A stretch of 64,000 nucleotides of DNA from an uncultured bacterium (GCA_964613215.1 CAZTHK010000011.1:61297-125296), one strand, 5' to 3'; shown: positions 13,414 through 62,378, numbered from the stretch's first letter. Numbers and translations: made by a program. The notes: generated by a model not told the origin, from the sequence alone.

Positions 13414-15095
13414 GCTCTATGGATAACCGGAAAATCGAATCGGCTCTTAAACCGGATCATTCGGGTAAGACAGCCCGGGCTGCCGGTGGAATGGTCTCCA
13501 CCGCCTTTCCACTGGCCACCGGGGCGGGGGTGGAGATTCTGCGCCGGGGCGGAAACAGCATCGACGCAGCCTGTGCGGCAGCACTGGCACTGGCTGTCTG
13601 CGAACCCCAGTCCAGCGGTCTGGGAGGACAGACCATGATGCTGATCGGCAGAAGGAACAAAGTCATCACCATAGACGGCTCCTCCCGGGCACCCTCCCTA
13701 ACCCATGTGGGAGCAATCTACAAACCGGACCGCTCCAGGGGATACCGGGCTACCACAGTCCCCGCCACCCCGGCCACCCTGGGATACGTCCAGAGGAAAT
13801 ACGGCCGGCTCGAGTGGTGGCAGGTGGTGAAACCCTCCATCCGGATCGCCCGGGAGGGTTATACCGTCACTCAGCTGCAGAGCCGCCTTCTGGACAGGGA
13901 GCAGAAGAACTTCAATCTGGTGGAATCAAAATCGGGGCTGCAATATTTCTACAGGGATGGAAAACCCTACAGGCCGGGAGAAACCTTCCGGCAGCCCCAC
14001 CTGGCGGAGCTGCTGGAGACCATCGCAGAGCGGGGAGCGGAAGAATTCTACACCGGCGAGACCGCCCGCAGGATAGATGCGGATATGAGAAAGAACGGGG
14101 GGCTGCTCAGGGAGGATGACCTCGCTCTGATTCCCTGGCCCATCGAAAGAAAACCACTGAGAGGGAAGTTCCGCAGTCTCACCGTCCATACCATGCCTCC
14201 CCCCGGCTCGGGCAGAAGCCTTCTATTCTGCCTGGCCCTGCTGGACCGGCTGTCTCCCCAGGACCTTGCCGGAGATCCCCTGAGGCGGGCCCACCTGCTG
14301 GCAGAGATATTCCGCAATGTCCTGCTGGAGCGTTCGGACAGGCCCTTCGACGCCAACTTCTATCCCCAGGTCAGCGAGAAGGATATGCTCAGCAGTGATT
14401 TCACCGGCAAAACCATAGAAAAGATAATCTCTGCCACGGCTCCCACCCTGCCCATCAAGGAGACCGAGGATGAAAAGAGCGGGGAAACCACCCACCTCTC
14501 GGTAATGGACAGCAGCGGTACCGCGGTAAGCCTGACCCAGTCCATAGAAAGGGTATATGGCAGCAAAGCCGCAGCGGACGGCCTGGGTTTCCTCTACAAC
14601 AACTACATGATGTCCTTTGAATACAATGTGCCCTCCCATCCCTACTACCTCCGGCCAAATGCAGTGCCCTGGGCCACAGTGGCCCCCAGTATCATCTTCG
14701 ACGGGGAGGGTCCATGGATGGCCCTGGGAAGCCCGGGGAGCGAACGGATCATATCCACCCTGGCCCAGTTCCTGATCAATCTGATAGACGAAGGAATGAG
14801 CCTGGAAGAGGCCATGCTCAGACCCAGGCTGCACTGCTCCCTGGGAGGGAGGGTGAGCCTGGAGGCGGAACGATTTTTCCCCGGACTGTCGGAATCACTG
14901 GAGGAGAAGGGTTACCGGATCAACCCCCGAGAAGCATTCTCCTTCTATATGGGGGCAATACACGCGGTAATGAAATGCCGGAGTGATGATGGCTTTCAGG
15001 GGGTAGCGGAGGAGAGAAGGGATGGAACCGCCGGGGGGTTATCGGCAGGGGAAAATCAGGCCGGGGGCGAGGAAAAACCCGGTGATAAAGAGTAG
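13410..15095 (+). CDS. ggt: gamma-glutamyltranspeptidase (Ntn-hydrolase)
   Basis: GGMVSTAFPLATGAGVEIL... and the catalytic-Thr region ETTHLSVMDSSGTAVSLTQSIE. A GTG start overlaps the stop of the preceding gene by 4 nt, indicating translational coupling. Confidence 0.85.
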   Translation: MSSMDNRKIESALKPDHSGKTARAAGGMVSTAFPLATGAGVEILRRGGNSIDAACAAALALAVCEPQSSGLGGQTMMLIGRRNKVITIDGSSRAPSLTHVGAIYKPDRSRGYRATTVPATPATLGYVQRKYGRLEWWQVVKPSIRIAREGYTVTQLQSRLLDREQKNFNLVESKSGLQYFYRDGKPYRPGETFRQPHLAELLETIAERGAEEFYTGETARRIDADMRKNGGLLREDDLALIPWPIERKPLRGKFRSLTVHTMPPPGSGRSLLFCLALLDRLSPQDLAGDPLRRAHLLAEIFRNVLLERSDRPFDANFYPQVSEKDMLSSDFTGKTIEKIISATAPTLPIKETEDEKSGETTHLSVMDSSGTAVSLTQSIERVYGSKAAADGLGFLYNNYMMSFEYNVPSHPYYLRPNAVPWATVAPSIIFDGEGPWMALGSPGSERIISTLAQFLINLIDEGMSLEEAMLRPRLHCSLGGRVSLEAERFFPGLSESLEEKGYRINPREAFSFYMGAIHAVMKCRSDDGFQGVAEERRDGTAGGLSAGENQAGGEEKPGDKE

Positions 15096-25236: not shown

Positions 25237-27312
25237 TTAAAAGCTGAACTTCAAGCTCGCATTCACATCCCAGTATTCCTTCCTCTTTTCAGAGATATAC
25301 GGCCCGTAATTTTTAATATACGCAATATCCATATCCAGTTCTCCAAGTCCCGATAAATCGCTGTATTTCTTGAATCCCAGCAGCAGAGTCCCCGATTCGT
25401 AATCGGTGGATGATGTTACCACAAAATCGCCCCCGGAAGAACCAATCTGATTTCTCTTCTTTAATCTGAATTTTGATTCCGCCCTTATCTGCGTATCCTT
25501 GCTGAAATTGTAGCTTAAAGCTGCGGCAAGGCCATCCTCCAGATTCTCCTGATAGGGGCTGTAGACCTCTATGCCCCTCTCATTATCAAGATAACTGCCC
25601 TTATCCTTGAGAAGATAGGTATACTTGAAGCTTAAGCCCAGAGGCTTGAAAACCCTCAATGTGGCGGAGGTATTGAGCCCGGTGGTCCGCTGAAGATAGT
25701 TCTTGTCCGCAGTATAGACATAATCGGTATACTCCATCCTTATGGTGTAGTCCTGCTGCAGGGTTATCCAGCTATCAGGCCTGAACTCTATGGTGGGTTC
25801 TATCAGATATAGGTATTCCACCCTGTTATCGCCGGAGAAGGACTCGTCGATATTGATTATCTCATACTTATCCGCAGTGGCTGAAATGAGAGTACTTATG
25901 GACGGAAACGGCTCAGCCTGGAATCTGAGCTGGCCCTTGTAGAAAACCCTGTCTTCATCCCTGGGATTATCCTGCTCCACAATAAAGAATCTCTGTGTTA
26001 TATATGCTGTCCCCCTTAAGCTGATAAAACTCGATTTCGAAATATTCTGATTTATCCCGGCACTGAGCTCCCTGGCCTCCTCCCGGTAGGAGGATTTTGA
26101 TCCTTCACCCTTCAGGTTTACCTCCTCCCGGTTGGTGATAGTGAAGGAAGCCGCTCCGCTGGTGCTGTAATCATACACCGCTTTGGCCCTGAGTTCGGCC
26201 TTCTCGTTGGAGCGGGACATCCTTGCCTCCTCCCGGTATCTCTTGCTGTTAATGGACCGGGAGAACTGTACCTCCAGCGAAACATAGGGAAGTGGCTGAG
26301 TGAAGGAGGTGAGATTTATCTCCTCCACCTCCTTTACTATCTCTTCCTGCACCGCTTTGCTGGGATCATCCAGAATCTGCAGGGATTGACCCCTGGGAGG
26401 CTCCACACTCCTCTCTACTGCATCTGATTGTCTATAACGGAAATCCACCAGCTTTTTTTTGCCCTTCCCGTAGGTTACCCTGGTCCGCATGGTATCTCCC
26501 CAGCTGGGCATCCCTCCGAAGGTAATATCACCCACATCGCTGCTCTCCTTGGTACTGGAATATCCGTAACTGCCGTTGACCATCAGCTGATCGGTAATAT
26601 GGTAACCCATGAAGCTGCTGGCACTTCCTACGTATGTTCTGTCGTACTTGAAGTCATCCCGCCCCTGCTTCAGATCGCCCTTGAAGGAAAACTGCGAGTT
26701 TATAGAGGGGATAAGGCCCTTTTTATAGATCACTTCGGCATCGGCCCTCTGTTTATCCATGACCAGGGCCTTTCCATACCTTGCCAGCCCGGCGGATGTA
26801 CTCTTGTTATAATTTTCCCCCAGGGAAAATTTAACGGAATATTCTCCCCGGCTCGCTCTGGTAACGGTACCGGAGAGGTTCTTGTTTATCCGCTGCATAT
26901 CCCGGCCCCTCTTAACCGTTTTGTTCACATTCACAGAATTCATAAAAGTCCATCCGCTGGAGTGGAGATAACTGGTCTTCATCGAAGTTCCCAGGGATAC
27001 ATCCACCTCTCCCGCTTTCATGGTGGACTCCCAGACCGGCTTAAATCCTGATTGTTCCTTTGCTGCTCCCTTCTCTCCATCGCCAGCGGCAGTGCTATCT
27101 GATACAGAGGTGTCCGGAAACACGATGGAGGTTGAGTCGGATGTTCCGCCCGGAGACTGCTCCCCGGCTGCCACCCCGTCTTCTGCCATCAAGGGGGAGG
27201 AGGACAGAATGGCAACTCCCAGAATCAGGGATACCATCACCACTAAGACTGCCGCAGCAGTAATACTCCCGGATGCAAAAACATCAATGATGGTGTATCC
27301 GGATCTCCTCAA
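25237..27312 (-). CDS. putative outer-membrane beta-barrel protein
   Basis: 691 aa, rich in S/T/Y/N/K, with alternating amphipathic segments and a C-terminus ...NASLKFSF ending in Phe as in OMP beta-signals. N-terminal hydrophobic signal. Confidence 0.55.
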   Translation of the reverse strand: MRRSGYTIIDVFASGSITAAAVLVVMVSLILGVAILSSSPLMAEDGVAAGEQSPGGTSDSTSIVFPDTSVSDSTAAGDGEKGAAKEQSGFKPVWESTMKAGEVDVSLGTSMKTSYLHSSGWTFMNSVNVNKTVKRGRDMQRINKNLSGTVTRASRGEYSVKFSLGENYNKSTSAGLARYGKALVMDKQRADAEVIYKKGLIPSINSQFSFKGDLKQGRDDFKYDRTYVGSASSFMGYHITDQLMVNGSYGYSSTKESSDVGDITFGGMPSWGDTMRTRVTYGKGKKKLVDFRYRQSDAVERSVEPPRGQSLQILDDPSKAVQEEIVKEVEEINLTSFTQPLPYVSLEVQFSRSINSKRYREEARMSRSNEKAELRAKAVYDYSTSGAASFTITNREEVNLKGEGSKSSYREEARELSAGINQNISKSSFISLRGTAYITQRFFIVEQDNPRDEDRVFYKGQLRFQAEPFPSISTLISATADKYEIINIDESFSGDNRVEYLYLIEPTIEFRPDSWITLQQDYTIRMEYTDYVYTADKNYLQRTTGLNTSATLRVFKPLGLSFKYTYLLKDKGSYLDNERGIEVYSPYQENLEDGLAAALSYNFSKDTQIRAESKFRLKKRNQIGSSGGDFVVTSSTDYESGTLLLGFKKYSDLSGLGELDMDIAYIKNYGPYISEKRKEYWDVNASLKFSF

Positions 27313-28753: not shown

Positions 28754-30163
28754 TTATCTCTTTGCCCAGGATATCACACTCTCTGACAGGGGATACTTGT
28801 ACTTACGCATCTTGAACTCAGCACCTTCCATACCCTCCACCACTTTCCGGCAGGCCTCTATATCCACATCCCCGTAATCCACCGCCGTAACAGTGCATTC
28901 CATGGAGGAAACAGCCGATTTCCGGATAAAATCCATTACCGATCTGTAGGCTTCCCTTCCCCTGTTCGGCCGGCAAACCCTCACATACTTATCCTCGTTT
29001 TCCGCATTCATGCTTATTGATATCCGGTCGAACACACTTTCCAGCTGTGGAACAATATTTCTGCCGTGAATAAGGTTCCCCTGGCCATTGGTATTCAGCC
29101 TCAACGGAACCCCCAGGCTTTTAAGCTGCACTGCGGTCTCAAGTATCTCTCCTATTCTGGTGCTGGGTTCTCCGTAACCACAGAATACCACCTCTGATAC
29201 ATCCCTCCTTTCGGCCTCCTTCCTGGTCTCAGAGACCATCTCTTCAACAGAGGGCTCCTCTTCCAGCTTGAGATTGTAACCGTAGAGAAACTTGTCTCTC
29301 CTGCCATAGGCACAGAATGAACAGTTGTTCACACAGTAATTGGTGACATTTATATATAGGTTGCCCTTGAGAATGTATGCCACCGCGGGCGGGATGTGCT
29401 GGTCTCCGTAGAACAGGCGCCGGTAATTAACCTCCGAGGCCCTCTCTATATCCTCTGTATCCACTCCCATCAGATCAGCCATCTTCCGGGCCACCAGCCT
29501 TACATAGGATGGTTCATTCCTCTTTCCCCGGTAAGGTTCCGGAGGAAGATAGGGACAGTCCGTCTCCAGCAGGAAGGCATTGGAGGGAAGCCGGGATACA
29601 GCCTCCGGCAGGCGTGAATTCCTGTAGGTGACCGGACCGCCTATTCCCACCAGGAATCCCATATCTATTATTTCCTTCAGCCTCTTCTCCCCCCCGGAGA
29701 AGGCGTGCATCACTCCCCCTATCTCTCTTCCCCCCTCCCTTCTGAGAATATCGATAACATCATCGAAGGCTTCCCTGCTGTGTATAACTATGGGCTTCTT
29801 GAAATATACCGCTATGGCGATCTGTTTCTTGAATACCATCCTCTGATCTTCCCTGCCGGAGAGATCCCGGTAGTAGTCCAGCCCGGTCTCTCCCACTCCC
29901 AGTATCTTCCTGCGCAGGAGCAGTTTCTTTATCTTCTCCTCTATCTCCGGAGTCCAGGTTTTGGCCTCATGGGGATGTATCCCCACCGTCCCCCTTATCA
30001 TTTCATAATTATCGGCAAGAGCTACCGTCTCATCGATGGTTGATGAATCTATGCTGATATTTAATATCTCCCCCACCCCCGCATCTGCAGCCCGCTTCAA
30101 AACCTCTTCCAGATCTCCTTCGAACCGGGGAAGATTAAGATGGGCATGACTGTCAATCAGCAT
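28754..30163 (-). CDS. TatD-family metal-dependent hydrolase fused to a C-terminal radical-SAM domain
   Basis: N-terminal ~260 aa are TatD (MLIDSHAHLNLP...GVGETGLDYY...VIHSREA...). The C-terminal ~200 aa contain CVNNCSFCAY, a CX3CX2C radical-SAM cluster motif, and resemble small TatD-associated rSAM proteins. Confidence 0.8.
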   Translation of the reverse strand: MLIDSHAHLNLPRFEGDLEEVLKRAADAGVGEILNISIDSSTIDETVALADNYEMIRGTVGIHPHEAKTWTPEIEEKIKKLLLRRKILGVGETGLDYYRDLSGREDQRMVFKKQIAIAVYFKKPIVIHSREAFDDVIDILRREGGREIGGVMHAFSGGEKRLKEIIDMGFLVGIGGPVTYRNSRLPEAVSRLPSNAFLLETDCPYLPPEPYRGKRNEPSYVRLVARKMADLMGVDTEDIERASEVNYRRLFYGDQHIPPAVAYILKGNLYINVTNYCVNNCSFCAYGRRDKFLYGYNLKLEEEPSVEEMVSETRKEAERRDVSEVVFCGYGEPSTRIGEILETAVQLKSLGVPLRLNTNGQGNLIHGRNIVPQLESVFDRISISMNAENEDKYVRVCRPNRGREAYRSVMDFIRKSAVSSMECTVTAVDYGDVDIEACRKVVEGMEGAEFKMRKYKYPLSESVISWAKR

Positions 30164-52008: not shown

Positions 52009-52956
52009 ATGAGAGGCGGTGTCGAAATGAAGGATAGAATGATAATTCACGATGAATTCAATTCATCGGCAAAAGTAGTTTTGAGCAATGGTGATTGTCT
52101 TAATTTACTAAAGAAAATCCCGGATGGTTCAATCCAACTAATTATTACTTCACCTCCATATAATATTGGAAAAGAATATGAAAGAAAATTAAAACTTGAA
52201 AAGTATATTGAACAACAAGAGAAAGTTATTGACGAATGCATAAGGGTTTTGTCTGATTCTGGCAGTATTTGCTGGCAGGTAGGGAATTACGTTGATAAAG
52301 GATCAATTATACCATTGGATACAATTCTTTATCCAATATTTGCAAAACGTAATTTAAAAATGAGAAACCGTATTATATGGCATTTTGGTCACGGTCTTCA
52401 TTGTAAAAACCGGTTTTCTGGAAGATATGAAACGGTAATTTGGTTTACAAAGAGTGATAATTACCATTTTAACCTGGATCCAGTACGTGTACCCCAGAAA
52501 TATCCCAAAAAGAAACATTTCAAAGGAGAAAAACGAGGACAATACTCTTGCAATCCTCTTGGCAAGAATCCCAGTGACGTATGGATGATTCCCAATGTAA
52601 AGAGCAATCATGTTGAAAAAACGATACATCCATGTCAATTCCCTGTTGAATTAATTGAACGGTTTGTTCTGTCTATGACAAAGGAAGAAGATTGGGTGTT
52701 TGATCCTTTCGTTGGAACTGGAACTTCGATTATTGCTGCTATTCGCCATAACAGAAGAGGCGCGGGCGCAGAAACTGAAGACAAATATGTCAAATTAGCC
52801 AGGAAAAGGATAAATATGGAGATGGATGGGGTTCTTCGAACACGCCCCATGAATAAACCAATCTATGATCCAAATAGTAGTGAAAACAGCTTGAATAGGC
52901 ACTGCCAGGAAAGAAGAAACGAAAACAAACAATTGCATCTGTTGGAGAGTGAATAG
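52009..52956 (+). CDS. DNA methyltransferase, beta-class (N6-adenine or N4-cytosine)
   Basis: Motif IV SPPY lies near the N-terminus and motif I DPFVGTGTS near the C-terminus, the circular permutation typical of beta-class amino-MTases. The gene is about 38% GC. Confidence 0.85.
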   Translation: MRGGVEMKDRMIIHDEFNSSAKVVLSNGDCLNLLKKIPDGSIQLIITSPPYNIGKEYERKLKLEKYIEQQEKVIDECIRVLSDSGSICWQVGNYVDKGSIIPLDTILYPIFAKRNLKMRNRIIWHFGHGLHCKNRFSGRYETVIWFTKSDNYHFNLDPVRVPQKYPKKKHFKGEKRGQYSCNPLGKNPSDVWMIPNVKSNHVEKTIHPCQFPVELIERFVLSMTKEEDWVFDPFVGTGTSIIAAIRHNRRGAGAETEDKYVKLARKRINMEMDGVLRTRPMNKPIYDPNSSENSLNRHCQERRNENKQLHLLESE

Positions 52957-52974
52957 TTTGGAGATATTCTAAAA

Positions 52975-53586
52975 GTGAAGATTATTGAAACATATTCGCA
53001 TTTAAATGGCCTTGAATATTTGATTGTTCATGAGAAAGAATTATGGAATCAGGTCAGGGAAGTTATAGCATCTGTAGATGCTGAAAAATGTAAGACTAAA
53101 AAATCGAAAGAAAAAACTATGAAGGGCAAAATGTTATACAGCCCAGCAGATATGAACGCAGAATTTAAACGGTTATTACTGAAATCAGAATGGCGTGAAA
53201 GCAGGGTCTCTTACTGGGTAACAAAAGACTCTAAACTTATCAGAAAAACACTTTCTCTTGATACTAACCAGCAAAAGAAAGAAATTGAAGCAAGTGGGCA
53301 AACTCCTATTTATAGTTATAATCAGACGGACTTTATTAGGAACAGAGTAGCGATCGAAGTGCAATTCGGGAAATATGCTTTCGTTGCTTATGATTTATTT
53401 GTGAAACACCTGGCTTTTTATGTAGGAAACAAAATTGATGTTGGAATTGAAATACTACCCATGAAATCTCTTCAATTGGAGATGAGTTCGGGTGTTCCCT
53501 ATTATGAAGGGGAACTTTACAATGTAATTAGGCAGGGCAGAGGTGTACCAGCAGTGCCCTTAGTAATCATTGGAATAGAACCATAA
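52975..53586 (+). CDS. type IIP restriction endonuclease of the BglII/BamHI family
   Basis: 203 aa. The N-terminus MKIIETYSHLNGLEYL and the catalytic region VAIEVQFGKYAF (an E-x-Q arrangement as in BglII) together with GIEILPMKSLQLEMSS (BamHI-like) recall those enzymes. It lies immediately downstream of the MTase. Confidence 0.65.
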   Translation: MKIIETYSHLNGLEYLIVHEKELWNQVREVIASVDAEKCKTKKSKEKTMKGKMLYSPADMNAEFKRLLLKSEWRESRVSYWVTKDSKLIRKTLSLDTNQQKKEIEASGQTPIYSYNQTDFIRNRVAIEVQFGKYAFVAYDLFVKHLAFYVGNKIDVGIEILPMKSLQLEMSSGVPYYEGELYNVIRQGRGVPAVPLVIIGIEP

Positions 53587-53729: not shown

Positions 53730-55628
53730 TCAAAAATCAAATGGTGAGATGTAATCCCCCAGTTTTCCCCGGGCTTCGGTCAACCGGTTCTTCTGCTCCT
53801 CTATATGAACGAAGACCTTATCGGGGGTATCGGCAACCCTCTCCCTGAAGATCTTTACCATCCTGTCCATCTTGGCAAGGTTCTCCGGGATCCTGATGGT
53901 GAACTGCCTGATATAGTCCTCTCTGGAGTAATCTCTTTCGAACACCTGTTTCACCAGTTTCCTGAGATCCTGGTAGCGGGGTATATATCCGGTAGGTGTT
54001 TCTATCCCTTCTGCCTCACCGTTCACCTTCAGGTCCATCCACTTAAGCCATACCTTCTTGTCATTCTTGTCATTGAGCCAATTGCCATCCTGGTCCTTCA
54101 GGAAGTAATTAACTGCAAAAATCCGGGGAGGATTATCCACCTGCTTCCCGAAATCGAGATTGTTCTGCACATACTTTCCTATGGGCAGGGAAAGAAAATC
54201 CAGATTGGACATGGGATTGAATTTTCTTACTCCCTCCTCCCCCAGGGTGGCTGCGGTGGTCTCCGATTCCAGGCAGGCACCATACATGACAATCCCGTGT
54301 TCCCAGCCGAACGATTCCTTGACCGGCACGGAGGTATTATAATCCCTCCCCCCGTAAATTACTCCATCCACCACCACCCCTTCAGGGGCATGAAGCTTTG
54401 AATCGGCGTTTTCAAGGATATCCATTCTGAAGGTAAACCTGGCGTTCTTGTGAGATGGATCTATGGTGTTACCATCCCGGTCCTTCTTCCCCCGGTACCA
54501 TTCGCCGGAATGATTTACTCCCTCCTCCGGAACTTCGCCGGGTTTGCCATTCCAGTAATTCTGCCCGTTTTCCACAACCAGCTGATTGGTGAATATAACT
54601 TCGTTGGGGCCGGTTATGGCCTTCCACTGGATGGGGTCCTCCTCGGGATTGATTCCCTGAATAATGCCAAAAACCCCCGCCTCTACATTCACCGCCCGGG
54701 TATCACCCTCTATGTTTTTCAGATAGGCAATATCATCTCCCACTATCTTCTCCCCCTCCAGCATGGCAGTGGATGTCTTGCCACACATGGATGGAAAGGC
54801 TCCGGTAAAGTAGGTAGTCCTGCCGGCGGGCCCGTTAACTCCCATTACCAGCATATGCTCGGTAAGCCACTTCTCCTCCGCCGCTCTGTGTATGGCCAGA
54901 CGCATAGCCAGCTTCTTCAGCCCGATGCTGTTTCCCCCGTACTGATTGTTGGCGCTGTAAACCGTTTCATCCTCCAGATCTATATACACCCTCCTCTCCT
55001 CTATGTTGCTGCTTACCAGCAGCCCCAGCCCGGCCTCCTCCAGCCGTCCCTGGGAATGGACGAATCTGAAGAAATCCATATCAGGACCGCCCCGGAGGAA
55101 TTCCTGATAACCCTGACGGTAGAGGAGATCTTCACTGTGAGCCACATAGGCTGAATCGGTCATCTGTACACATGGTATGGAGAAGGGTGAATTCTGTGGT
55201 CCCAGGCAGTAGAATTTTATGTGAAGCTGGTGTCCCTCCATGATCCCATCCATTATTCCCCGGATCTCCCTCAATCCCTCCTCTTTGACTATGGAATTTA
55301 TTTCCGGGCCCAGGTTCTCGCCCGGCGGCAGAAGGAACCTGGTGTTTTCCTTGTCTCTGGCCTGGTCGAAGTATCCATCGAAATGGATGGTATGGCCGGG
55401 GGTTGCCAGTCTGGCTTCCTCCCTGTTTTTCAGGGCAGCCTCCCGGGTCCTTTCCAGGTCTTCTTCAGTATCGGCATAGACGGTGACTAGCCCGGGTTTG
55501 ACCAGCTCTATGAAATCGTGGATGAATGAGTGAACCTCCGGATTGTCAATCCGGCTTAGCTTCTCGAAATCTTCTTTCCGGAGAATCGACCGAAGATCGC
55601 CGGTAGGGTTGGAACTCATTTTTCTCAT
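53730..55628 (-). CDS. pckG: phosphoenolpyruvate carboxykinase (GTP)
   Basis: 632 aa with GTP-PEPCK motifs YGGNSIGLKKLAMRLA and FPSMCGKTS. Confidence 0.9.
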   Translation of the reverse strand: MRKMSSNPTGDLRSILRKEDFEKLSRIDNPEVHSFIHDFIELVKPGLVTVYADTEEDLERTREAALKNREEARLATPGHTIHFDGYFDQARDKENTRFLLPPGENLGPEINSIVKEEGLREIRGIMDGIMEGHQLHIKFYCLGPQNSPFSIPCVQMTDSAYVAHSEDLLYRQGYQEFLRGGPDMDFFRFVHSQGRLEEAGLGLLVSSNIEERRVYIDLEDETVYSANNQYGGNSIGLKKLAMRLAIHRAAEEKWLTEHMLVMGVNGPAGRTTYFTGAFPSMCGKTSTAMLEGEKIVGDDIAYLKNIEGDTRAVNVEAGVFGIIQGINPEEDPIQWKAITGPNEVIFTNQLVVENGQNYWNGKPGEVPEEGVNHSGEWYRGKKDRDGNTIDPSHKNARFTFRMDILENADSKLHAPEGVVVDGVIYGGRDYNTSVPVKESFGWEHGIVMYGACLESETTAATLGEEGVRKFNPMSNLDFLSLPIGKYVQNNLDFGKQVDNPPRIFAVNYFLKDQDGNWLNDKNDKKVWLKWMDLKVNGEAEGIETPTGYIPRYQDLRKLVKQVFERDYSREDYIRQFTIRIPENLAKMDRMVKIFRERVADTPDKVFVHIEEQKNRLTEARGKLGDYISPFDF

Positions 55629-55898
55629 CTCCCCCAGAGGTTAAGGGAAAATTTTACGCCTGCCTCCGCAGGGCTTCAGATTTATCATCCATAAGTTAAA
55701 CCATCCATGCTGCCGGTCAAGCATAAATCGTTAAAATAAAAAAGATTTTGCCATTTACCTAAAAAAACATCCAATGCAAGATTCATGTAAAACAACTTCG
55801 GAAAGATTAAATAATATATGAAGAAATTTAATAATTTTTATTGCATAAACGGCTATATGAAGAAAGTGCCGGATCTGCCCCCTGCCAGCGAAGGAATT

Positions 55899-55914
55899 CG
55901 ATAATAATTATTGC
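55899..55914. promoter_or_regulatory. candidate Fur/PerR-family operator (ATAAT-n-ATTAT inverted repeat) in the pckG / seleno-prx divergent promoter region
   Basis: cgATAATaATTATtgc resembles the 7-1-7 PerR/Fur box core. It lies ~170 nt upstream of the prx ATG. A direct repeat ttattgca(t/a)aaa is also present at ~55838 and ~55906. Confidence 0.3.
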
Positions 55915-56084
55915 AAAAAATCCAGGGAGGTCTATAATCAGAATCCCTGAGGGAGAAAGGAGGCTCGAATATGCCTGAAGAATTCGATGCCAGTTGCGCC
56001 AGGCCTACCGGAGGCCCGGTGGGTGAGGCGGAGAAACCGGAAAAACAGGAGAAAGAGAAAGCCGAGAAGAAGAAGGAGGCCGCC

Positions 56085-56693
56085 ATGATCAAGGTTGGTC
56101 AGAAAGCCCCTGATTTCATTGCTCCGGCATATCATCAGGGCAAATTCGTAAATGTTAAACTTTCCGAATATCTGGGCAAATGGGTACTGGTCTGTTTCTA
56201 CCCGGGTGATTTTACCTTTGTTTGAGCAACGGAAGTTTCGGCAGTTGCCGAAAAGTATTCCGAATTGCAGGAACTGGGAGTAGAGGTTCTTTCTGTCAGT
56301 GTGGACAGCGTTTTCGTACATAAGATGTGGGATGAAAACGAGCTCTCCAGGATGGTGGAGGGAGGCATTCCATTCCCCATGCTGTCCGACGGCGGCGGAA
56401 AGGTGGGCAGTATCTACGGCATTTATGATGAAAATGCGGGAACGGAAACAAGGGGACGGTTCATTATAGACCCCGACGGATTAATTCAGGGCTTTGAAGT
56501 TCTGACCCCGCCGGTAGGCAGAAATGTCGGCGAAACCCTCAGGCAGATTCAGGCATTTCAACTGGTTAGAAAAAGCAAGGGGAAGGAAGCCACACCTTCC
56601 GGATGGAAACCGGGCAAGAAAACACTCAAGCCCGGGCCCGGCCTGGTGGGCAATGTCTGGAAGGAATGGAAGACAGATATGGCCTTCGATTAA
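56085..56693 (+). CDS. selenocysteine-containing peroxiredoxin (AhpC/Prx1 subfamily, in-frame TGA at 56223-56225 read as Sec, no resolving Cys)
   Basis: A single frame reads [11 protein letters not shown]...[40 protein letters not shown]...[16 protein letters not shown]... This aligns with AhpC FTFVCPTE, with TGA exactly at the peroxidatic Cys. The ORF track splits the gene into 55971..56225 and 56265..56693, both in the same frame. An AGGAGG RBS lies 5 nt before ATG 56085. A SECIS-like hairpin lies 11 nt after the TGA. Confidence 0.75.
56230..56261 (+). promoter_or_regulatory. bacterial SECIS-like hairpin
   Basis: cggaa-g-TTTCGGC-aguu-GCCGAAA-agta-ttccg has a 7-bp upper stem and a 4-nt apical loop containing GU at ~20 nt downstream of the UGA, plus a 5-bp lower stem with an internal loop. 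Confidence 0.55.
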
Positions 56694-56833
56694 ATTTATC
56701 TTAAAAGAAAGAGTGCACTTTCTAATCAGAGTGTTCTTATTCAACAGGTATGCACAAGGACCGTATTGTAACCTTAACCCGGAAAGCTGATGATCCGGAT
56801 TGAATGGGTTCGATCCCTGATTATGAATAAATA

Positions 56834-56867
56834 AAATCTCCCCGGTGTCGTCCCGGGGAGATTTTTC
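56834..56867 (+). terminator. rho-independent terminator downstream of the peroxiredoxin gene
   Basis: aaATCTCCCCGGtgtcgtcCCGGGGAGATttttt forms a 10-12 bp stem followed by a T5 run. Confidence 0.75.
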
Positions 56868-57261
56868 TGAACTTAATCCCTACAGAATCGGCGTGCCTAC
56901 ACTCTGACGGCATGCCTGTGCTCATAACAAGTTAAGAATCCTGCACTCCAATCCGGCCGTGCCGCTGGTTTTTCCGGATAATCCATAAGTGCAGCCGCCA
57001 TCGCTGCTGAGTGCAGGCTGATTGAAGAATCAGCCATAGTACCCATTTCCCTTCCAGCCGCCTGATAACATCCAAACAGTATCAGGCTGTACCGGCAAGA
57101 CATTATCATTGTCTTTCTGCCATGCGGGAACGAGTTTATGAATTAACCGGGTTACCCCGCTTACACTCCTATGCTTTATGTAAGTGCCTGCATTCCGCCA
57201 GTGCCTTACCAGCAGGGAACAGAGGGCTTCTAATACCATTAAGCCACAGATGGATCGAGTC

Positions 57262-57471
57262 TTACTGCTGATACTTGAATGACAGCTTTATCTTGGCCCG
57301 GTACTGGACTATCTTCCCTTCCTCTATATGCATATCCAGTTTTTCCACCTCGGCGATTCTCAGATCCCTGAGATTTTTTCCGGCAGCCTCCACCGCGTTT
57401 GCCGCGGCCTTTTCCCACGAATCAGGACTGGTGCCAACCAGCTCGATTACCTTGTAGGTACTATCTGGCAT
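57262..57471 (-). CDS. dodecin (flavin-binding dodecameric protein)
   Basis: 69 aa MPDSTYKVIELVGTSPDSWEKAAANAVEAAGKNLRDLRIAEVEKLDMHIEEGKIVQYRAKIKLSFKY, a dodecin-family signature. An AAAGGAGAG RBS precedes it. The listed ORF 57262..57600 carries an unsupported N-terminal extension. Confidence 0.75.
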   Translation of the reverse strand: MPDSTYKVIELVGTSPDSWEKAAANAVEAAGKNLRDLRIAEVEKLDMHIEEGKIVQYRAKIKLSFKYQQ

Positions 57472-57633
57472 AATTATCTCTCCTTTCGCTGACTCGGTTA
57501 ACAGAAAACATCTCTCTCTTCGACTCCTGAAACTACAGAGTAAGCCTTTCCGGCCAAAAAGAACAGCAAAAAAGTTCTTCTTATCCGGAGTCCGGAGCAC
57601 GCCGGCAGAGCCAGCTCTGCACCGTACAGGATT

Positions 57634-58425
57634 CTATCTATAGACCACCACCGCAGCCGGCTCAACCACCCGGAAGGTGAATGACTCTACGAAGAACAGC
57701 TTCACCTTCCCGCTGTCGTGGCTCTCATAACCTATGGACAGATCAACTCCCAGAGTCAGGATGAAGTCTTCCCCCCTCTCCGATACGAGGAACATCTCCT
57801 TGACATGGGGTGTAGCTATGATCTCTCCGCCCAGGGTCTCTTCTATCTGCCTGCGGAGTGGATAGCCTTTGTGTTCGGCCAGGACGTTTTGCCACAGGGC
57901 CGTATTCATCACCGCCGTATATGGTCCCTCCACCGAGGCATTCTTCATCATGGTTACTCCGGAGGAGAGAGCTGCCAGTATCTTATCCGATCTCTTGGGG
58001 ATAGCCTGAACCTTATGAGCGGTCCCTTTTTTAAGCCCTTCGATGTTTGCCTTGTTGAGACCATAATATATGCTGTTCTCTTCAAACTGAGCCATTTCCT
58101 CCACCGCATCCTCCATGGGGCCCAGGTCTGCATCCACCGATCCCCGGCTGATACCATCCAGCTCTTCCACGCTCAACCGGAAGGGCATCTTTACCTCAAT
58201 CAGTGGTTGAATCTGATGGATCCTGCTCTCCGGTCCGTTCTTTTTGCTGGTCAGCTTTTCTGTCTTGCCCAGAGTCACAGCCCCGTAGTCCCACCCCTTC
58301 GGCTCGCCCACATCCACAAAGCGCCTGGCGGTCAGGGCCTGTCCAAATAACAACTTCGCCTGCTCGCTTATCTCCGCCCAGGCTTCATCGGAGACAGGAG
58401 CCATAGATTGTCGAAGTATATCCAT
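57634..58425 (-). CDS. family-1 encapsulin nanocompartment shell protein (HK97 fold)
   Basis: 263 aa. MDILRQSMAPVSDEAWAEISEQAKLLFGQALTARRFVDVGEPKGWDYGAV ... GPYTAVMNTALW ... KEMFLVSERGEDFILTLGVDLSIGYESHDSGKVKLFFVESFTFRVVEPAAVVV aligns along its whole length with the Thermotoga-type encapsulin (linocin M18 family). Confidence 0.85.
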   Translation of the reverse strand: MDILRQSMAPVSDEAWAEISEQAKLLFGQALTARRFVDVGEPKGWDYGAVTLGKTEKLTSKKNGPESRIHQIQPLIEVKMPFRLSVEELDGISRGSVDADLGPMEDAVEEMAQFEENSIYYGLNKANIEGLKKGTAHKVQAIPKRSDKILAALSSGVTMMKNASVEGPYTAVMNTALWQNVLAEHKGYPLRRQIEETLGGEIIATPHVKEMFLVSERGEDFILTLGVDLSIGYESHDSGKVKLFFVESFTFRVVEPAAVVVYR

Positions 58426-58448
58426 AGTTTACTCCTTTTCTTTCCTGT

Positions 58449-58802
58449 TTACAGCTTTCCGATGCCCAGATCGGATCCGCGGGAACTGTGATTGTTTCCT
58501 TCTTCCTCCTCTTCACCCTCCTCAATGGATGTAATATCCTGCTGGGTAAAAAGATAATCCCGCAGGTTCTCATCCCAACCGTCCATATTTCTGCGCAGCC
58601 ACTCCAGAAGCATGCTGGCATGCTCCATCTCCTCCTCCATATTATGAAGCAGAATCTTCTTAAGCTCCGCCCTGGCTGTAACATCGGCACGCTGCCTGTA
58701 CCAGTCGATAGCTTCGATCTCCTCCTTGAGGCTGTTGAGGGCCCTGGTGTAATCCTTACATTCCTCGCTCAATTCGTTCTCGGCTTCGTGATAATCCGGC
58801 AT
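58449..58802 (-). CDS. encapsulated ferritin-like cargo protein (EncFtn) with a C-terminal encapsulin targeting peptide
   Basis: IEAIDWYRQRADVT...ELKKILLHNMEEEMEHASMLLEWLRRN is the EncFtn Glu/His ferroxidase motif. An acidic linker precedes the terminal SRGSDLGIGKL, which matches the GSLGIGSL-type cargo-loading peptide. It lies 23 nt upstream of the shell gene. Confidence 0.8.
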   Translation of the reverse strand: MPDYHEAENELSEECKDYTRALNSLKEEIEAIDWYRQRADVTARAELKKILLHNMEEEMEHASMLLEWLRRNMDGWDENLRDYLFTQQDITSIEEGEEEEEGNNHSSRGSDLGIGKL

Positions 58803-59257
58803 GGTCTCACCTCCTCCGGTTTGATATTAATTAAATTTATTTCCTTTATATGGTTAAGCGTCCCGCTCCCCCAGCCCGGCGTCCCACGAAGAGAACCTGG
58901 CCGCAGTTTCTGGATATCCGGGGGCAGCCGGAAACACTTTTTTTCAAAAAAAGTCTCCGTTTGAAGCTTTCCTGACAAATTGTATTCATCCATCTGGAAT
59001 CAAGCTGAACCCGCTTCTCCGGGTACCCTATAAGTCCACCATACTCAGCTGGTTAATCAATCCCTCCCCGGGCCGGTTTTAACCTGGATAAATATAAAGA
59101 CAACCCCCTGGTACCCTGAACCGGGCTATCATCCTCTTCAACCAGCCCGGCTTAATCCGTCAACGACAACTATTGATAACTTATAAATCAAATTCCTGAA
59201 AAACTCAAGACGGATTAAAGTAGAAGTTGATTGAACACAGTAAAATGGAGAAACAGG

Positions 59258-60133
59258 CTACCCCACTGTCACCATGGCAATTCCGAACAGGGCCAGCAGA
59301 ACTGCTGCAGTTTTCCTCCTGGTGAAGGGTTCACCCAGAAACAGGGCGGCAAGTATGACGACATATATGGTGCTGGTCTGATTAAGGATGGCGGCAGTTC
59401 CCGCCCGGGTAAACTTCATCCCCCCCAGCCAGAATATCAGCGCCAGATAGGAACCCAGTATTGTACCGGTCAGGGAAAACTTCCAGTTTCTGGTGGGGCG
59501 GAATAACGCAAAATGCTCTCTCCTGTTCTTCGAAATCAGGGCTGCCGGTATAAGGGCGAACAGGCTTCCCAGCTGCCTGACCGTGGTGGCCCATATCAGG
59601 GGTGAATGGGACAGCACCGTCTTTGCAATAACCACCCCGAAGGCCAGCGTAGCCATTGCCCCCATACCCCATAAAAGCCCCACTGCCAGTTCCCTCCGGC
59701 TCAATTTCCCGGGAGGGGTGGCCCCTGAAGATATCACGATTGCCGTCACTATGAGCATCATCCCCCCTATCTGAATCAGCCCCACCTTCTCTCCCAGCAG
59801 GAGGAAGGCGAAAAATATAACAGATGGCGAGTACATGCAGTCCACCACTGCCATCAGCCCGGCTCCCACCAGATTGAGAGAGTGGTGAAACATGGTGTCG
59901 GATATGGCAATGGCAATAACACCGCTGGCAAACAGGATAAGATAATCCTGCAGTGGAGCCCGGTTCCATATATCCTCACCCATCACTTTCACCGTAATAA
60001 CCAGCAGAATGCTGGTTATCCCCACTCTGAAAAAGGTAAGACCAAAGGGTGGTATAGTCTTTCCCGACTTCTTAAAACATATTACTGCCACCGCCCATAT
60101 GAAAGCGGCAAGAAGGGCGAAAAGTTCTCCCAT
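59258..60133 (-). CDS. EamA/DMT-family transporter
   Basis: 291 aa with ~10 TM helices and duplicated EamA domains. Confidence 0.75.
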   Translation of the reverse strand: MGELFALLAAFIWAVAVICFKKSGKTIPPFGLTFFRVGITSILLVITVKVMGEDIWNRAPLQDYLILFASGVIAIAISDTMFHHSLNLVGAGLMAVVDCMYSPSVIFFAFLLLGEKVGLIQIGGMMLIVTAIVISSGATPPGKLSRRELAVGLLWGMGAMATLAFGVVIAKTVLSHSPLIWATTVRQLGSLFALIPAALISKNRREHFALFRPTRNWKFSLTGTILGSYLALIFWLGGMKFTRAGTAAILNQTSTIYVVILAALFLGEPFTRRKTAAVLLALFGIAMVTVG

Positions 60134-60209: not shown

Positions 60210-62378
60210 TCAGTGTATGGTCATCTCATCCAGCAGCTTTTTGGCACCACTGAACCTGTCCACCACGAAGAGGATGTACCTGGAATCGACACTTATACAC
60301 CTGGTAAGATCCTCATCGAAGATGTAATCTGCAGATATGCTCTCGTAGTTACCGTCGAAGGCAGCTCCGATAACCTCTCCCCGGGCATTCATGATGGGGC
60401 TTCCCGAGTTTCCCCCGGTAATATCGCAGGTGGAGAGGAAATCCACCGGAACATCCCCCAGATACGCATCCCGGTAATCTCCCAGTTCGTCTTCCTGGTA
60501 GAGATCCAGAACCCTGTCCGGACAGTCGAAGGGGTCCTCTCCGGTATGCTTCTCCACTACCCCGTCCAGAGAGGTGATATAGTCGTAATAGACCGCATCC
60601 CTTGGCCAGTAGCCTTTCACCGTTCCGTAGGTAAGCCGGATGGTTCCGTTAGCGTCCGGATAGAAGGCTCCTCCCTTCCATCTCCGGTAGGCCTCTATCA
60701 GCTCAGGTCTGATGGCGGAGATGGCGCCATTGAATTCCTTGTTGTTCTTCTCCAGTTCCTTTAATTCACTGTCCAGACTCAGGGCCAGCCGGATGAATCT
60801 GTCGTCAAGCCCCACCACCTTCTCACGGGACAGCTCAAAAATACGCAGTCGTTCCTCTTCCGTACCAAGCGAGGTGCCGGAGTAAAGATCATCTACAGCA
60901 TTTTCAATTCTGGACTGTATATCCTCCCCGCCGGCTGCTTCAAGCAGGCTGTCGAAAGCTTCGATCCTCTGCTCTGGGGGCAGCTCCCGGGACATCTCCA
61001 GGAAATATTTGAGCACCTCCCTGTCCACATGCTGGTCATAACTCATCTGCATGGTACTGAGTCCCCTCTTCAGACGGGGTATATCCCTCTCCATATATCC
61101 GGGATCCCTCTCCATATCCTCTTTGGTCTTCTCCTCGCTCCAGCGGACCAGGGTTGTTGCAGCCCTGAGCATCTGGCATCCGAACCTGCTGAATCTGAGC
61201 ACAAAGTTCTTATCCCGGTATTCCTCCTGTTTATCATAAAGATCAGCTATGGAGGGAAGGACATCTCCGTACTTCCTCTTCATTTCAGGATTTTCCTCCA
61301 GCCAGTCTGTGAAATCCTCCTCTTCCGATCTCTTCAGGGCCAGAAGGCCTGCTTTCTCGAATCCCTCCAGCATACCCTGGTAGTTCTTCATTGCATTGTT
61401 GAGCATCTGGTCGTAGGAGGCCACCTTGATGGCCACCGAAGGATTGGCCTCCGCCTCACTCTGGTACAGGTCTATCATCTCCCCGAATACCTTGATTCTC
61501 CTGGGATACATCCAGTTCTGATGATAGGCGATAGAGTAGGATGAGCGGTACCTCATGGTTCTTCCGGGATAGCCTATTATCATGGCAAAATCGTCTCTCT
61601 TCACTCCCCTGGAAGAAATGGCCAGATGTACCTCCGGCTGATAGGGGACATTATCCCCGGAATACTCCGCCGAACTTCCGTCCGGTGCCACGTAGGCGCG
61701 GAAGAAGGAGAAATCTCCGCCGTGCCGGGGCCACATCCAGTTGTCTATATCACCGCCGTAGTTGCCTATCGAACCGGGTGGAGCATATACTATCCTTACA
61801 TCCTTCATGGTAAAATAGGTGAACAGCTTGTACTGCATCCCCCCGTAGAAGCTGGCCACCCTGCACCTGACATCCCTGTCCTTCTCCGCCTCCCTGATAA
61901 TCTCCTTGTTTCGCTTTTCGATGGCCTGGTATCTCTCCGCACCGTCCAATCCCCCTGCCGCTTCCAGCACCCTCTCGGTTACATCCTCTATGGAGATAAG
62001 CACCGATGCCTCATAGCCCCTGGCAGGCACTTCCTTATCATAGCTGTCGGCATAGAAGCCTTCCCTCATGAAATTGCTCTCCACCGAACTGGCTCTCTGG
62101 AGGGCGGTAAAGGCAACATGATGATTGGTAAGTATCAGGCCCTTATCCGATACGAACGAACCGGTCCCTCCGCCCAGATCGACTATGCCGTATGCGATGC
62201 CCTCGCCATCAGGAGTGTATATCTCTTCCCGGGAAAGTTTGAGTCCAAGTTCCTTCATATCCTCTGCCAACCCCCTGTCCAGCTTATCCAGCTGCCACAT
62301 TCCCTCCTCGGCGAAGGTGGCGGCGGAGCCAACCAGGCCCACTACCACCAGCACGGCTAAGATCCTGGCTAAACGCAT
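60210..62378 (-). CDS. S46-family dipeptidyl-peptidase (DPP7/DPP11-like), secreted
   Basis: Signal peptide plus catalytic-triad contexts TNHHV (His), DFSFFRAY and GGNSGSP (Ser). 722 aa. Confidence 0.85.
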   Translation of the reverse strand: MRLARILAVLVVVGLVGSAATFAEEGMWQLDKLDRGLAEDMKELGLKLSREEIYTPDGEGIAYGIVDLGGGTGSFVSDKGLILTNHHVAFTALQRASSVESNFMREGFYADSYDKEVPARGYEASVLISIEDVTERVLEAAGGLDGAERYQAIEKRNKEIIREAEKDRDVRCRVASFYGGMQYKLFTYFTMKDVRIVYAPPGSIGNYGGDIDNWMWPRHGGDFSFFRAYVAPDGSSAEYSGDNVPYQPEVHLAISSRGVKRDDFAMIIGYPGRTMRYRSSYSIAYHQNWMYPRRIKVFGEMIDLYQSEAEANPSVAIKVASYDQMLNNAMKNYQGMLEGFEKAGLLALKRSEEEDFTDWLEENPEMKRKYGDVLPSIADLYDKQEEYRDKNFVLRFSRFGCQMLRAATTLVRWSEEKTKEDMERDPGYMERDIPRLKRGLSTMQMSYDQHVDREVLKYFLEMSRELPPEQRIEAFDSLLEAAGGEDIQSRIENAVDDLYSGTSLGTEEERLRIFELSREKVVGLDDRFIRLALSLDSELKELEKNNKEFNGAISAIRPELIEAYRRWKGGAFYPDANGTIRLTYGTVKGYWPRDAVYYDYITSLDGVVEKHTGEDPFDCPDRVLDLYQEDELGDYRDAYLGDVPVDFLSTCDITGGNSGSPIMNARGEVIGAAFDGNYESISADYIFDEDLTRCISVDSRYILFVVDRFSGAKKLLDEMTIH

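Follow-up and report, generated by a model that had tools for sequence, protein, structure and literature searches.

The 64,000-nucleotide (nt) stretch analysed here, to which we refer as the window, comes from an uncultured bacterium (GCA_964613215.1 CAZTHK010000011.1:61297-125296) and carries, one after the other on its minus strand, a gene for an encapsulated ferritin-like cargo protein (EncFtn), a gene for a family-1 encapsulin shell and an open reading frame (ORF) of 69 codons for a protein of the dodecin family, with gaps of 23 and 162 nt between them (Table 1). An earlier note on this DNA had placed the three ORFs and had read them as an iron-sequestering nanocompartment accompanied by a flavin-binding dodecin; ORF calls and the sequence itself confirm position and strand for all three. 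As set out below, we consider it highly probable that the first two genes encode a standard iron-storage nanocompartment of the family-1 EncFtn-encapsulin type, and that the downstream dodecin is an independent neighbour of the non-flavin type. Several bacteria have already yielded descriptions and solved structures of EncFtn-encapsulin operons, and the operon in the window is a canonical one.

Table 1. Features of the encapsulin locus, in window coordinates
Feature	Position	Strand	Basis
EncFtn (encapsulated ferritin-like cargo), 117 aa	58449..58802	-	PF22277, TIGR04535
C-terminal cargo-loading (targeting) peptide GSDLGIGKL of EncFtn	58452..58478	-	motif kept in homologues adjoining encapsulins
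23-nt intercistronic spacer with ribosome-binding site aaaggag	58426..58448	-	sequence reading
Family-1 encapsulin shell, 263 aa	57634..58425	-	NF041155, PF04454, alignment to T. maritima encapsulin
Codon GAA, Glu87 of the shell, at the position of the flavin-stacking Trp87 of T. maritima	58165..58167	-	ungapped PDB alignment
162-nt shell-dodecin spacer, with hairpin 57549-57589 and ribosome-binding site aaaggag before the dodecin ATG	57472..57633	-	fold z-score, terminator scan
Dodecin-family protein, Rv0379-like ('calcium dodecin') subfamily, 69 aa	57262..57471	-	PF07311, 3ONR
Strong bidirectional terminator-like hairpin, 13 bp, 7 G-C pairs, T-runs on both sides	56833..56865	.	terminator scan and sequence

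The cargo gene and its shell

The cargo protein contains HNMEEEMEHASMLLEWLRR and is matched by two EncFtn profiles, PF22277 with 126.9 bits (cut-off 27, E 2.5e-37) and TIGR04535 with 140.3 bits (cut-off 125). Its residues 5-94 align without gaps to residues 9-98 of the Rhodospirillum rubrum EncFtn chain (5DA5). This alignment puts E28, E58, H61 and Y35 in the places of Glu32, Glu62, His65 and Tyr39 of the di-iron ferroxidase centre, and E27 and E30 in those of Glu31 and Glu34 of the entry site, both sites being taken as defined for the R. rubrum protein (PMC5012862). An acidic linker (residues 94-101) leads to the C-terminal targeting peptide. The corresponding motif, (S/D)(D/S)L(G/N)IGK(I/L), often extended by K or KK, ends nearly all of 83 EncFtn ORF matches, which come from 82 of the 84 encapsulin loci surveyed below and each lie directly upstream of an encapsulin gene. 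The description of this gene in the earlier note, with its EncFtn motif, acidic linker and SDLGIGKL end, is hence borne out, and so is the expectation that the C-terminal peptide be conserved among homologues. At the level of sequence, the gene identities, the catalytic residues and the targeting peptide are established.

The characterised EncFtn systems of R. rubrum and Haliangium ochraceum (5DA5; 7OE2/7ODW) share with the window the conserved ferroxidase and entry-site residues or their equivalents, and their organisation, in which a C-terminal localisation sequence tethers a decameric ferroxidase cargo, is the one to which we liken the EncFtn of the window. Differences from these proteins concern the sequence only: the window EncFtn has a shorter linker of more acidic character, and its targeting peptide terminates in GKL, whereas those of R. 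rubrum and H. ochraceum are of the GSLK type.

The shell protein scores 246.3 bits over its full length against NF041155 encap_f1, the family-1 shell equivalog (cut-off 100), and matches PF04454 with an E-value of 1.1e-72. Residues 1-261 align end to end with residues 1-262 of the Thermotoga maritima encapsulin (7MU1/3DKT, E 7e-59), with no extra domains and at a length that fits the 260-290 aa or so of HK97-type shell proteins, and all 23 PDB matches at E<=1e-10 were named by their depositors as encapsulin shells or by one of the older family names, Maritimacin, Linocin-M18 and Cfp29. The assignment of this ORF to the family-1 encapsulins, proposed in the earlier note, agrees with each of these comparisons. 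In T. maritima, the encapsulin and its ferritin-like cargo (3DKT, 7MU1, 7K5W) are encoded in the same two-gene order, the shell is of equal length, and the cargo is an EncFtn/Flp with a C-terminal targeting peptide of the ...LGIxK type, as in the window; by analogy, a T=1 iron-storing particle would be the expected product. EncFtn precedes the shell gene at short distance in 82 of the 84 related loci, and the short spacer with its ribosome-binding site implies that cargo and shell are co-transcribed.

The T. maritima and window shells differ at the flavin position. Flavin mononucleotide (FMN) stacks on Trp87 of the T. maritima encapsulin, which is W90 in the numbering of LaFrance (PMC8086157, PMC8610991), and a W90E mutant of this shell purifies colourless and without flavin signal (PMC8610991). 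The window shell carries Glu at this very position. Among its 120 closest shell homologues, Trp is found in 117, Glu in two, namely the window shell itself and that of a sister locus (P0002), and Ser in one. Since Glu87 replaces the flavin-stacking Trp, we conclude that the window shell, unlike its T. maritima counterpart, most likely binds no flavin and is probably no flavoprotein. The substitution does not stand alone: of the 72 columns in which 93% or more of the remaining 118 homologues agree, the window and sister shells depart from nine, with the exchanges G41E, R54K, G68R, R79K, W87E, N91G, A108V, L171A and T246V, and three of these, at 79, 87 and 91, cluster in sequence around the flavin-Trp position. 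The window shell is in effect a natural W87E variant within a clade that otherwise holds to Trp, and could serve as a natural control in studies of flavin binding by the encapsulins of anaerobes. A further difference from T. maritima lies in the host, here an uncultured bacterium, probably mesophilic and of the FCB group.

For the operon as a whole, we envisage the following course. Upon co-transcription across the 23-nt spacer, EncFtn would assemble into decamers whose dimer interfaces form the di-iron ferroxidase centres from E28, E58, H61 and Y35, and the flexible acidic linker together with GSDLGIGKL would dock these decamers on the interior surface of the shell, which, as in T. maritima, is probably a particle of 60 subunits with T=1 symmetry. 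Fe2+ would enter via the shell pores and be oxidised by EncFtn, the ferric mineral would be kept in the lumen, and storage in this form would protect the host from iron-driven oxidative damage. The assembly state, T number and iron storage assumed here are those of the characterised homologues.

The dodecin-family protein

The 69-residue product of the third gene matches PF07311 (Dodecin) over residues 5-67 with an E-value of 4.8e-26. It falls below the cut-offs of both NCBIfam dodecin equivalogs (bacterial and haloarchaeal dodecin), scoring 58.9 against 75 and 44.9 against 100. Its best match in the PDB is 3ONR, the Mycobacterium tuberculosis protein Rv0379 ('SecE2'), with an E-value of 4.7e-15 and 48% identity, while the flavin dodecins score lower and the flavin dodecin Rv1498A is only 32% identical. 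In flavin dodecins, two isoalloxazine rings are sandwiched by symmetry-related tryptophans, Trp39 in Rv1498A (PMC7414021, PMC8044443). Where these proteins carry the clamping Trp, the window protein has Ile39, and the residue is Ile or Val in all of its 120 closest homologues. W19, D46, R58 and S64 are common to all 120 and to Rv0379, and A40 is found in 119 of them. The signature that the window protein has in common with Rv0379 thus reads S18-W19-E20, R38-(I/V)39-A40, D46-M47, Y57-R58 and S64-F65-K66, as against Gly18, Trp39, Phe40, Arg46-Gly47, Gln58 and Gly64 at the corresponding positions of three aligned flavin dodecins; Ala40 and Arg58, in particular, replace the Phe and Gln of the latter.

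Because the Trp clamp is absent, Rv0379 is the closest relative of known structure and the equivalog cut-offs are missed, we place the protein with the non-flavin type: judged by its sequence, it is a member of the Rv0379-like ('calcium dodecin') subfamily. The flavin-binding dodecin of the earlier note is not supported by these residues. The window protein has the Pfam family and the length in common with the flavin dodecins of Halorhodospira halophila (2VXA), M. tuberculosis (Rv1498A, 3OQT/2YIZ), Streptomyces (6R1E) and Thermus thermophilus (2V18), and a dodecameric fold would be expected of it. It is probably dodecameric, non-flavin and possibly cation-binding. Rv0379 itself is known as 'calcium dodecin'. 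A 2011 paper by Arockiasamy and colleagues, listed among the references of PMC12124568, reportedly crystallised it as a calcium-binding dodecamer, and its gene is not known to lie beside the M. tuberculosis encapsulin gene. For annotation, flavin binding should not be read from a match to Pfam "Dodecin" by itself: there is a large and highly conserved dodecin subfamily, Rv0379 included, that lacks the flavin clamp, and its members are very widespread and occur in unrelated contexts.

Is the dodecin part of the nanocompartment?

A cryptic targeting peptide on the dodecin, which the earlier note had raised as something to look for, does not exist: the protein ends ...SFKYQQ, carries no targeting peptide, and its domain, spanning residues 5-67, leaves no room for a hidden one. 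We asked of the genomes whether the adjacency of the two systems recurs. The encapsulin side of this survey covered 84 loci, 80 of them from contigs representing one genome per species and 4 from exact look-ups; 82 of these are non-sister loci, with shells 42-54% identical to that of the window and flanks of at most 8 kb to either side, less at contig ends. The window shell protein, looked up by exact sequence, matched no recorded contig, and in the genome collection, which lacks the genome of the window, the best shell match has 54% identity. A phmmer search at E<0.01 found no dodecin in any of these 82 loci. Its sensitivity is adequate, since the same query retrieves the flavin dodecins from the much larger PDB set. 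From the other side, the 85 loci in which the closest dodecins are encoded proved free of encapsulin and EncFtn genes; among them are those of the three nearest relatives (88, 81 and 79% identical) and another 80 metagenome loci (62-76%). A full-text literature search for 'dodecin' together with 'encapsulin' returned no paper reporting such a link.

The sole other lineage with the adjacency, among those sampled, is the sister locus (L001), whose shell P0002 is 73% identical to that of the window. This locus is syntenic throughout, with genes for S46 peptidase, EamA transporter, EncFtn, encapsulin, dodecin, a split peroxiredoxin and phosphoenolpyruvate carboxykinase (PEPCK), and because the entire neighbourhood has been kept, the adjacency of dodecin and encapsulin within it carries no specific functional signal. 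Recurrence in related genomes is thereby confined to one syntenic sister lineage. Loss of the flavin Trp, considered as a predictor of a dodecin neighbour, was rejected: the shell P0017 (Ser87), the only other one without Trp, has no dodecin nearby, its neighbour being a classical ferritin.

Transcription signals between shell and dodecin are less one-sided. The earlier note had proposed a terminator hairpin at ~57554-57583, and a predicted hairpin does exist at this site (Table 1), but its nature as a terminator did not hold up: the U-run lies within the stem with no U-tail after it, the fold is no better than that of shuffled sequences (z-score -1.64), and a terminator scan called none on the minus strand of the 162-nt spacer. 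The sister spacer is of the same length, and only T-runs and the ribosome-binding site are conserved in it. The first canonical terminator on the minus strand is the bidirectional hairpin, 400 nt past the dodecin stop, which is also the first after the convergent peroxiredoxin on the plus strand. Read-through co-transcription of the dodecin with the encapsulin operon is thus conceivable. A sigma-70-like match at 57501-57473 was tried as a promoter of the dodecin gene and rejected, its -10 element being located between ribosome-binding site and ATG. Rfam yielded no match at gathering thresholds in the whole window, and a permissive scan of 55600-59300 gave a single hit at chance level; the surroundings of the dodecin gene therefore contain neither an FMN riboswitch nor any other known RNA.

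Several points weigh against an independent dodecin beside a standard nanocompartment. The only two Glu87 shells are exactly the two with a dodecin neighbour, albeit within a single evolutionary lineage. With no canonical terminator between shell and dodecin, and with the 162-nt spacing and the gene order kept in the sister, the dodecin could be a third gene of the operon. The encapsulin-side survey comprises the 80 best of at least 564 loci, and on the dodecin side, where the median locus measures 3.8 kb, roughly one in two is a short contig, so that this part of the survey carries less weight.

Taken together, the first of these points speak for a reading in which the operon here has three genes, with the Rv0379-type dodecin as a genuine member, a soluble metal- or cation-binding dodecamer that might, for example, buffer divalent cations outside the shell and was maybe recruited after loss of the flavin site. 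The gene lies on the same strand with a ribosome-binding site of its own, the first strong terminator follows only after it, and Rv0379, its closest relative of known structure, is said to bind calcium as a dodecamer. Since no canonical terminator separates shell and dodecin, this reading stays alive, if at low probability. It is set against the single lineage with its wholly syntenic and therefore unspecific conservation, the lack of recurrence from either the encapsulin or the dodecin side, the missing targeting peptide, and the wide distribution of the subfamily, highly conserved across unrelated contexts. On balance we regard it as improbable. In its most specific form, the non-flavin dodecin of this poorly sampled and probably Krumholzibacteriota lineage would be co-transcribed as the third gene and act with a shell whose ancestral flavin site was lost through W87E, for instance as an external cation-binding partner, which we hold to be distinctly improbable; if true, the uncharacterised 'calcium dodecin' subfamily would for the first time be placed in a functional setting.

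The idea put forward in the earlier note, that the dodecin serves as a flavin store or buffer for a flavin-binding shell and so couples flavin redox chemistry to the storage and release of iron, has its basis in the FMN bound by the T. maritima encapsulin (PMC8086157, PMC8610991), in the Pfam Dodecin match, and in the adjacency of the genes on one strand, kept in the sister lineage. The sequence largely refutes it on both sides of the proposed exchange. Glu87 of the shell is the substitution that abolishes flavin binding, and the dodecin, with Ile39 and with Arg58 in place of the Gln of all three aligned flavin dodecins, groups with Rv0379 and misses the equivalog cut-offs. It also has no targeting peptide, no FMN riboswitch or other RNA family accompanies it, and the adjacency is missing from the 82 and 85 other loci; we judge this coupling very unlikely. 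Hardest to credit is the view of the shell gene as the remnant of a prophage capsid, or as a 'linocin/bacteriocin', without a functional nanocompartment. The HK97 fold shared by encapsulins and historical bacteriocin annotations might suggest it, but no phage genes surround the shell gene, the gene immediately before it encodes a cargo of its own whose targeting peptide is conserved, the family-1 shell equivalog matches over the full length, and the shell ORF is unbroken and has been kept in the sister lineage.

We thus return to the dodecin as, most likely, an independent neighbour of the EncFtn-encapsulin operon that is held in place by synteny and would be neither cargo nor flavin buffer of the compartment.

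Neighbouring genes and host

Upstream, the operon is flanked by genes for an EamA transporter (59258-60133, minus strand) and an S46 peptidase (60210-62378, minus strand), and downstream by a convergent peroxiredoxin gene (~56085-56693, plus strand) and a gene for a GTP-dependent PEPCK (53730-55628, minus strand). The peroxiredoxin is of the 2-Cys type and has an in-frame TGA (56223-56225) at the position of the peroxidatic Cys (DFTFV-U-ATE). A hairpin, UUUCGGC-AGUU-GCCGAAA (~56236-56253), with the apical loop AGUU, follows 13 nt past this TGA and recurs unchanged in the sister locus, in which the peroxiredoxin gene was called as two fragments. The arrangement is consistent with a selenocysteine peroxiredoxin and a bacterial selenocysteine insertion sequence (SECIS) element.

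A Fur/PerR-like 7-1-7 box, CGATAATAATTATTG, is located at 55899-55913 on the plus strand, with 3 mismatches to the Fur consensus, and overlaps a sigma-70-like promoter at 55911-55938 (TTGCAA-16-TATAAT) upstream of the putative selenocysteine peroxiredoxin gene. The earlier note had put the encapsulin block within 1 kb of this box. The box lies ~1.35 kb from the end of the dodecin gene and ~2.9 kb from the start of EncFtn, and a search of the 455 nt upstream of EncFtn with the Fur/PerR consensus found no comparable site; the box belongs to the convergent peroxiredoxin gene and cannot serve the encapsulin operon. Footprinting against the sister locus was of no help here, the spacer upstream of EncFtn having diverged too far to align informatively.

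The compact oxidative-stress and iron module that had been suggested for this region is plausible only as a loose clustering, as the peroxiredoxin is convergent, with a promoter-like site and box of its own, and peroxiredoxin genes occur near the operon in only 3 of the 82 other loci, at 1-3 kb from the shell gene and all in Marinilabiliaceae/Thermophagus (L033 among them). In L033, where the subfamily was checked, it differs from that of the window peroxiredoxin. Redox and metal genes are loosely clustered with encapsulin operons in some lineages (L033, also L006 and L009), but this is not general. At 7505-11800 of L033 (Thermophagus sp.), EncFtn and encapsulin are followed by a nitroreductase-like gene, a 1-Cys peroxiredoxin and a ZupT-like metal transporter, going by the look of the translations alone. 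In another locus (L085), a classical ferritin divergently adjoins EncFtn. In the next-closest lineage (53% identity), an aconitase gene follows EncFtn and encapsulin on the same strand after 56 nt (L003 5622-8797, L004 693-3868), so that the gene of an Fe-S enzyme comes straight after those of an iron-storage compartment.

The 397 nt that separate the end of the dodecin gene from the bidirectional terminator (56866-57262) hold no convincing ORF, the longest one being without Pfam match. This segment has no Rfam or Pfam match, nor a BLAST match among the sequences gathered for this comparison, and it is missing from the sister locus, in which the spacer from dodecin to peroxiredoxin measures 167 nt. 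Read as minus-strand RNA, it folds better than 100 of 100 shuffled sequences (z -3.5, terminator included), and it could be a structured 3' untranslated region or a small RNA.

As to the host, membership of the FCB group is suggested by a sorting domain of the type IX secretion system (T9SS), by a BatA aerotolerance protein and by the S46 peptidase, and the best named relatives of the methionyl-tRNA synthetase in the window, at 66-75% identity, are from Candidatus Krumholzibacteriota. We take the host to be, probably, an anaerobic or microaerophilic member of the FCB group. The window holds no rRNA or tRNA genes.

Four further regions of the window, apart from the encapsulin locus, deserve mention. 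A 691-residue ORF (25237-27312, minus strand) has no Pfam match at E<=1e-5. A 469-residue ORF (28754-30163, minus strand) joins a complete TatD-type DNase domain (residues 3-251) to a radical-SAM domain (271-425), a combination that may reflect either an uncommon fusion or two genes taken for a single one. At 11269-15095 on the plus strand, a 714-residue protein has a D-Ala-D-Ala-ligase-type ATP-grasp domain at residues 114-316 only; its gene overlaps the start of a gamma-glutamyltranspeptidase gene by 4 nt, and the two may form a pair in peptide or gamma-glutamyl metabolism. Base composition is uniform across the encapsulin-dodecin block. A type II restriction-modification pair at 52009-53586 (plus strand), in which a BglII-like endonuclease comes after an N4/N6 DNA methylase, sits in a patch with a GC content of 0.37 against ~0.52 for the window, and on account of this low-GC patch was probably acquired horizontally.

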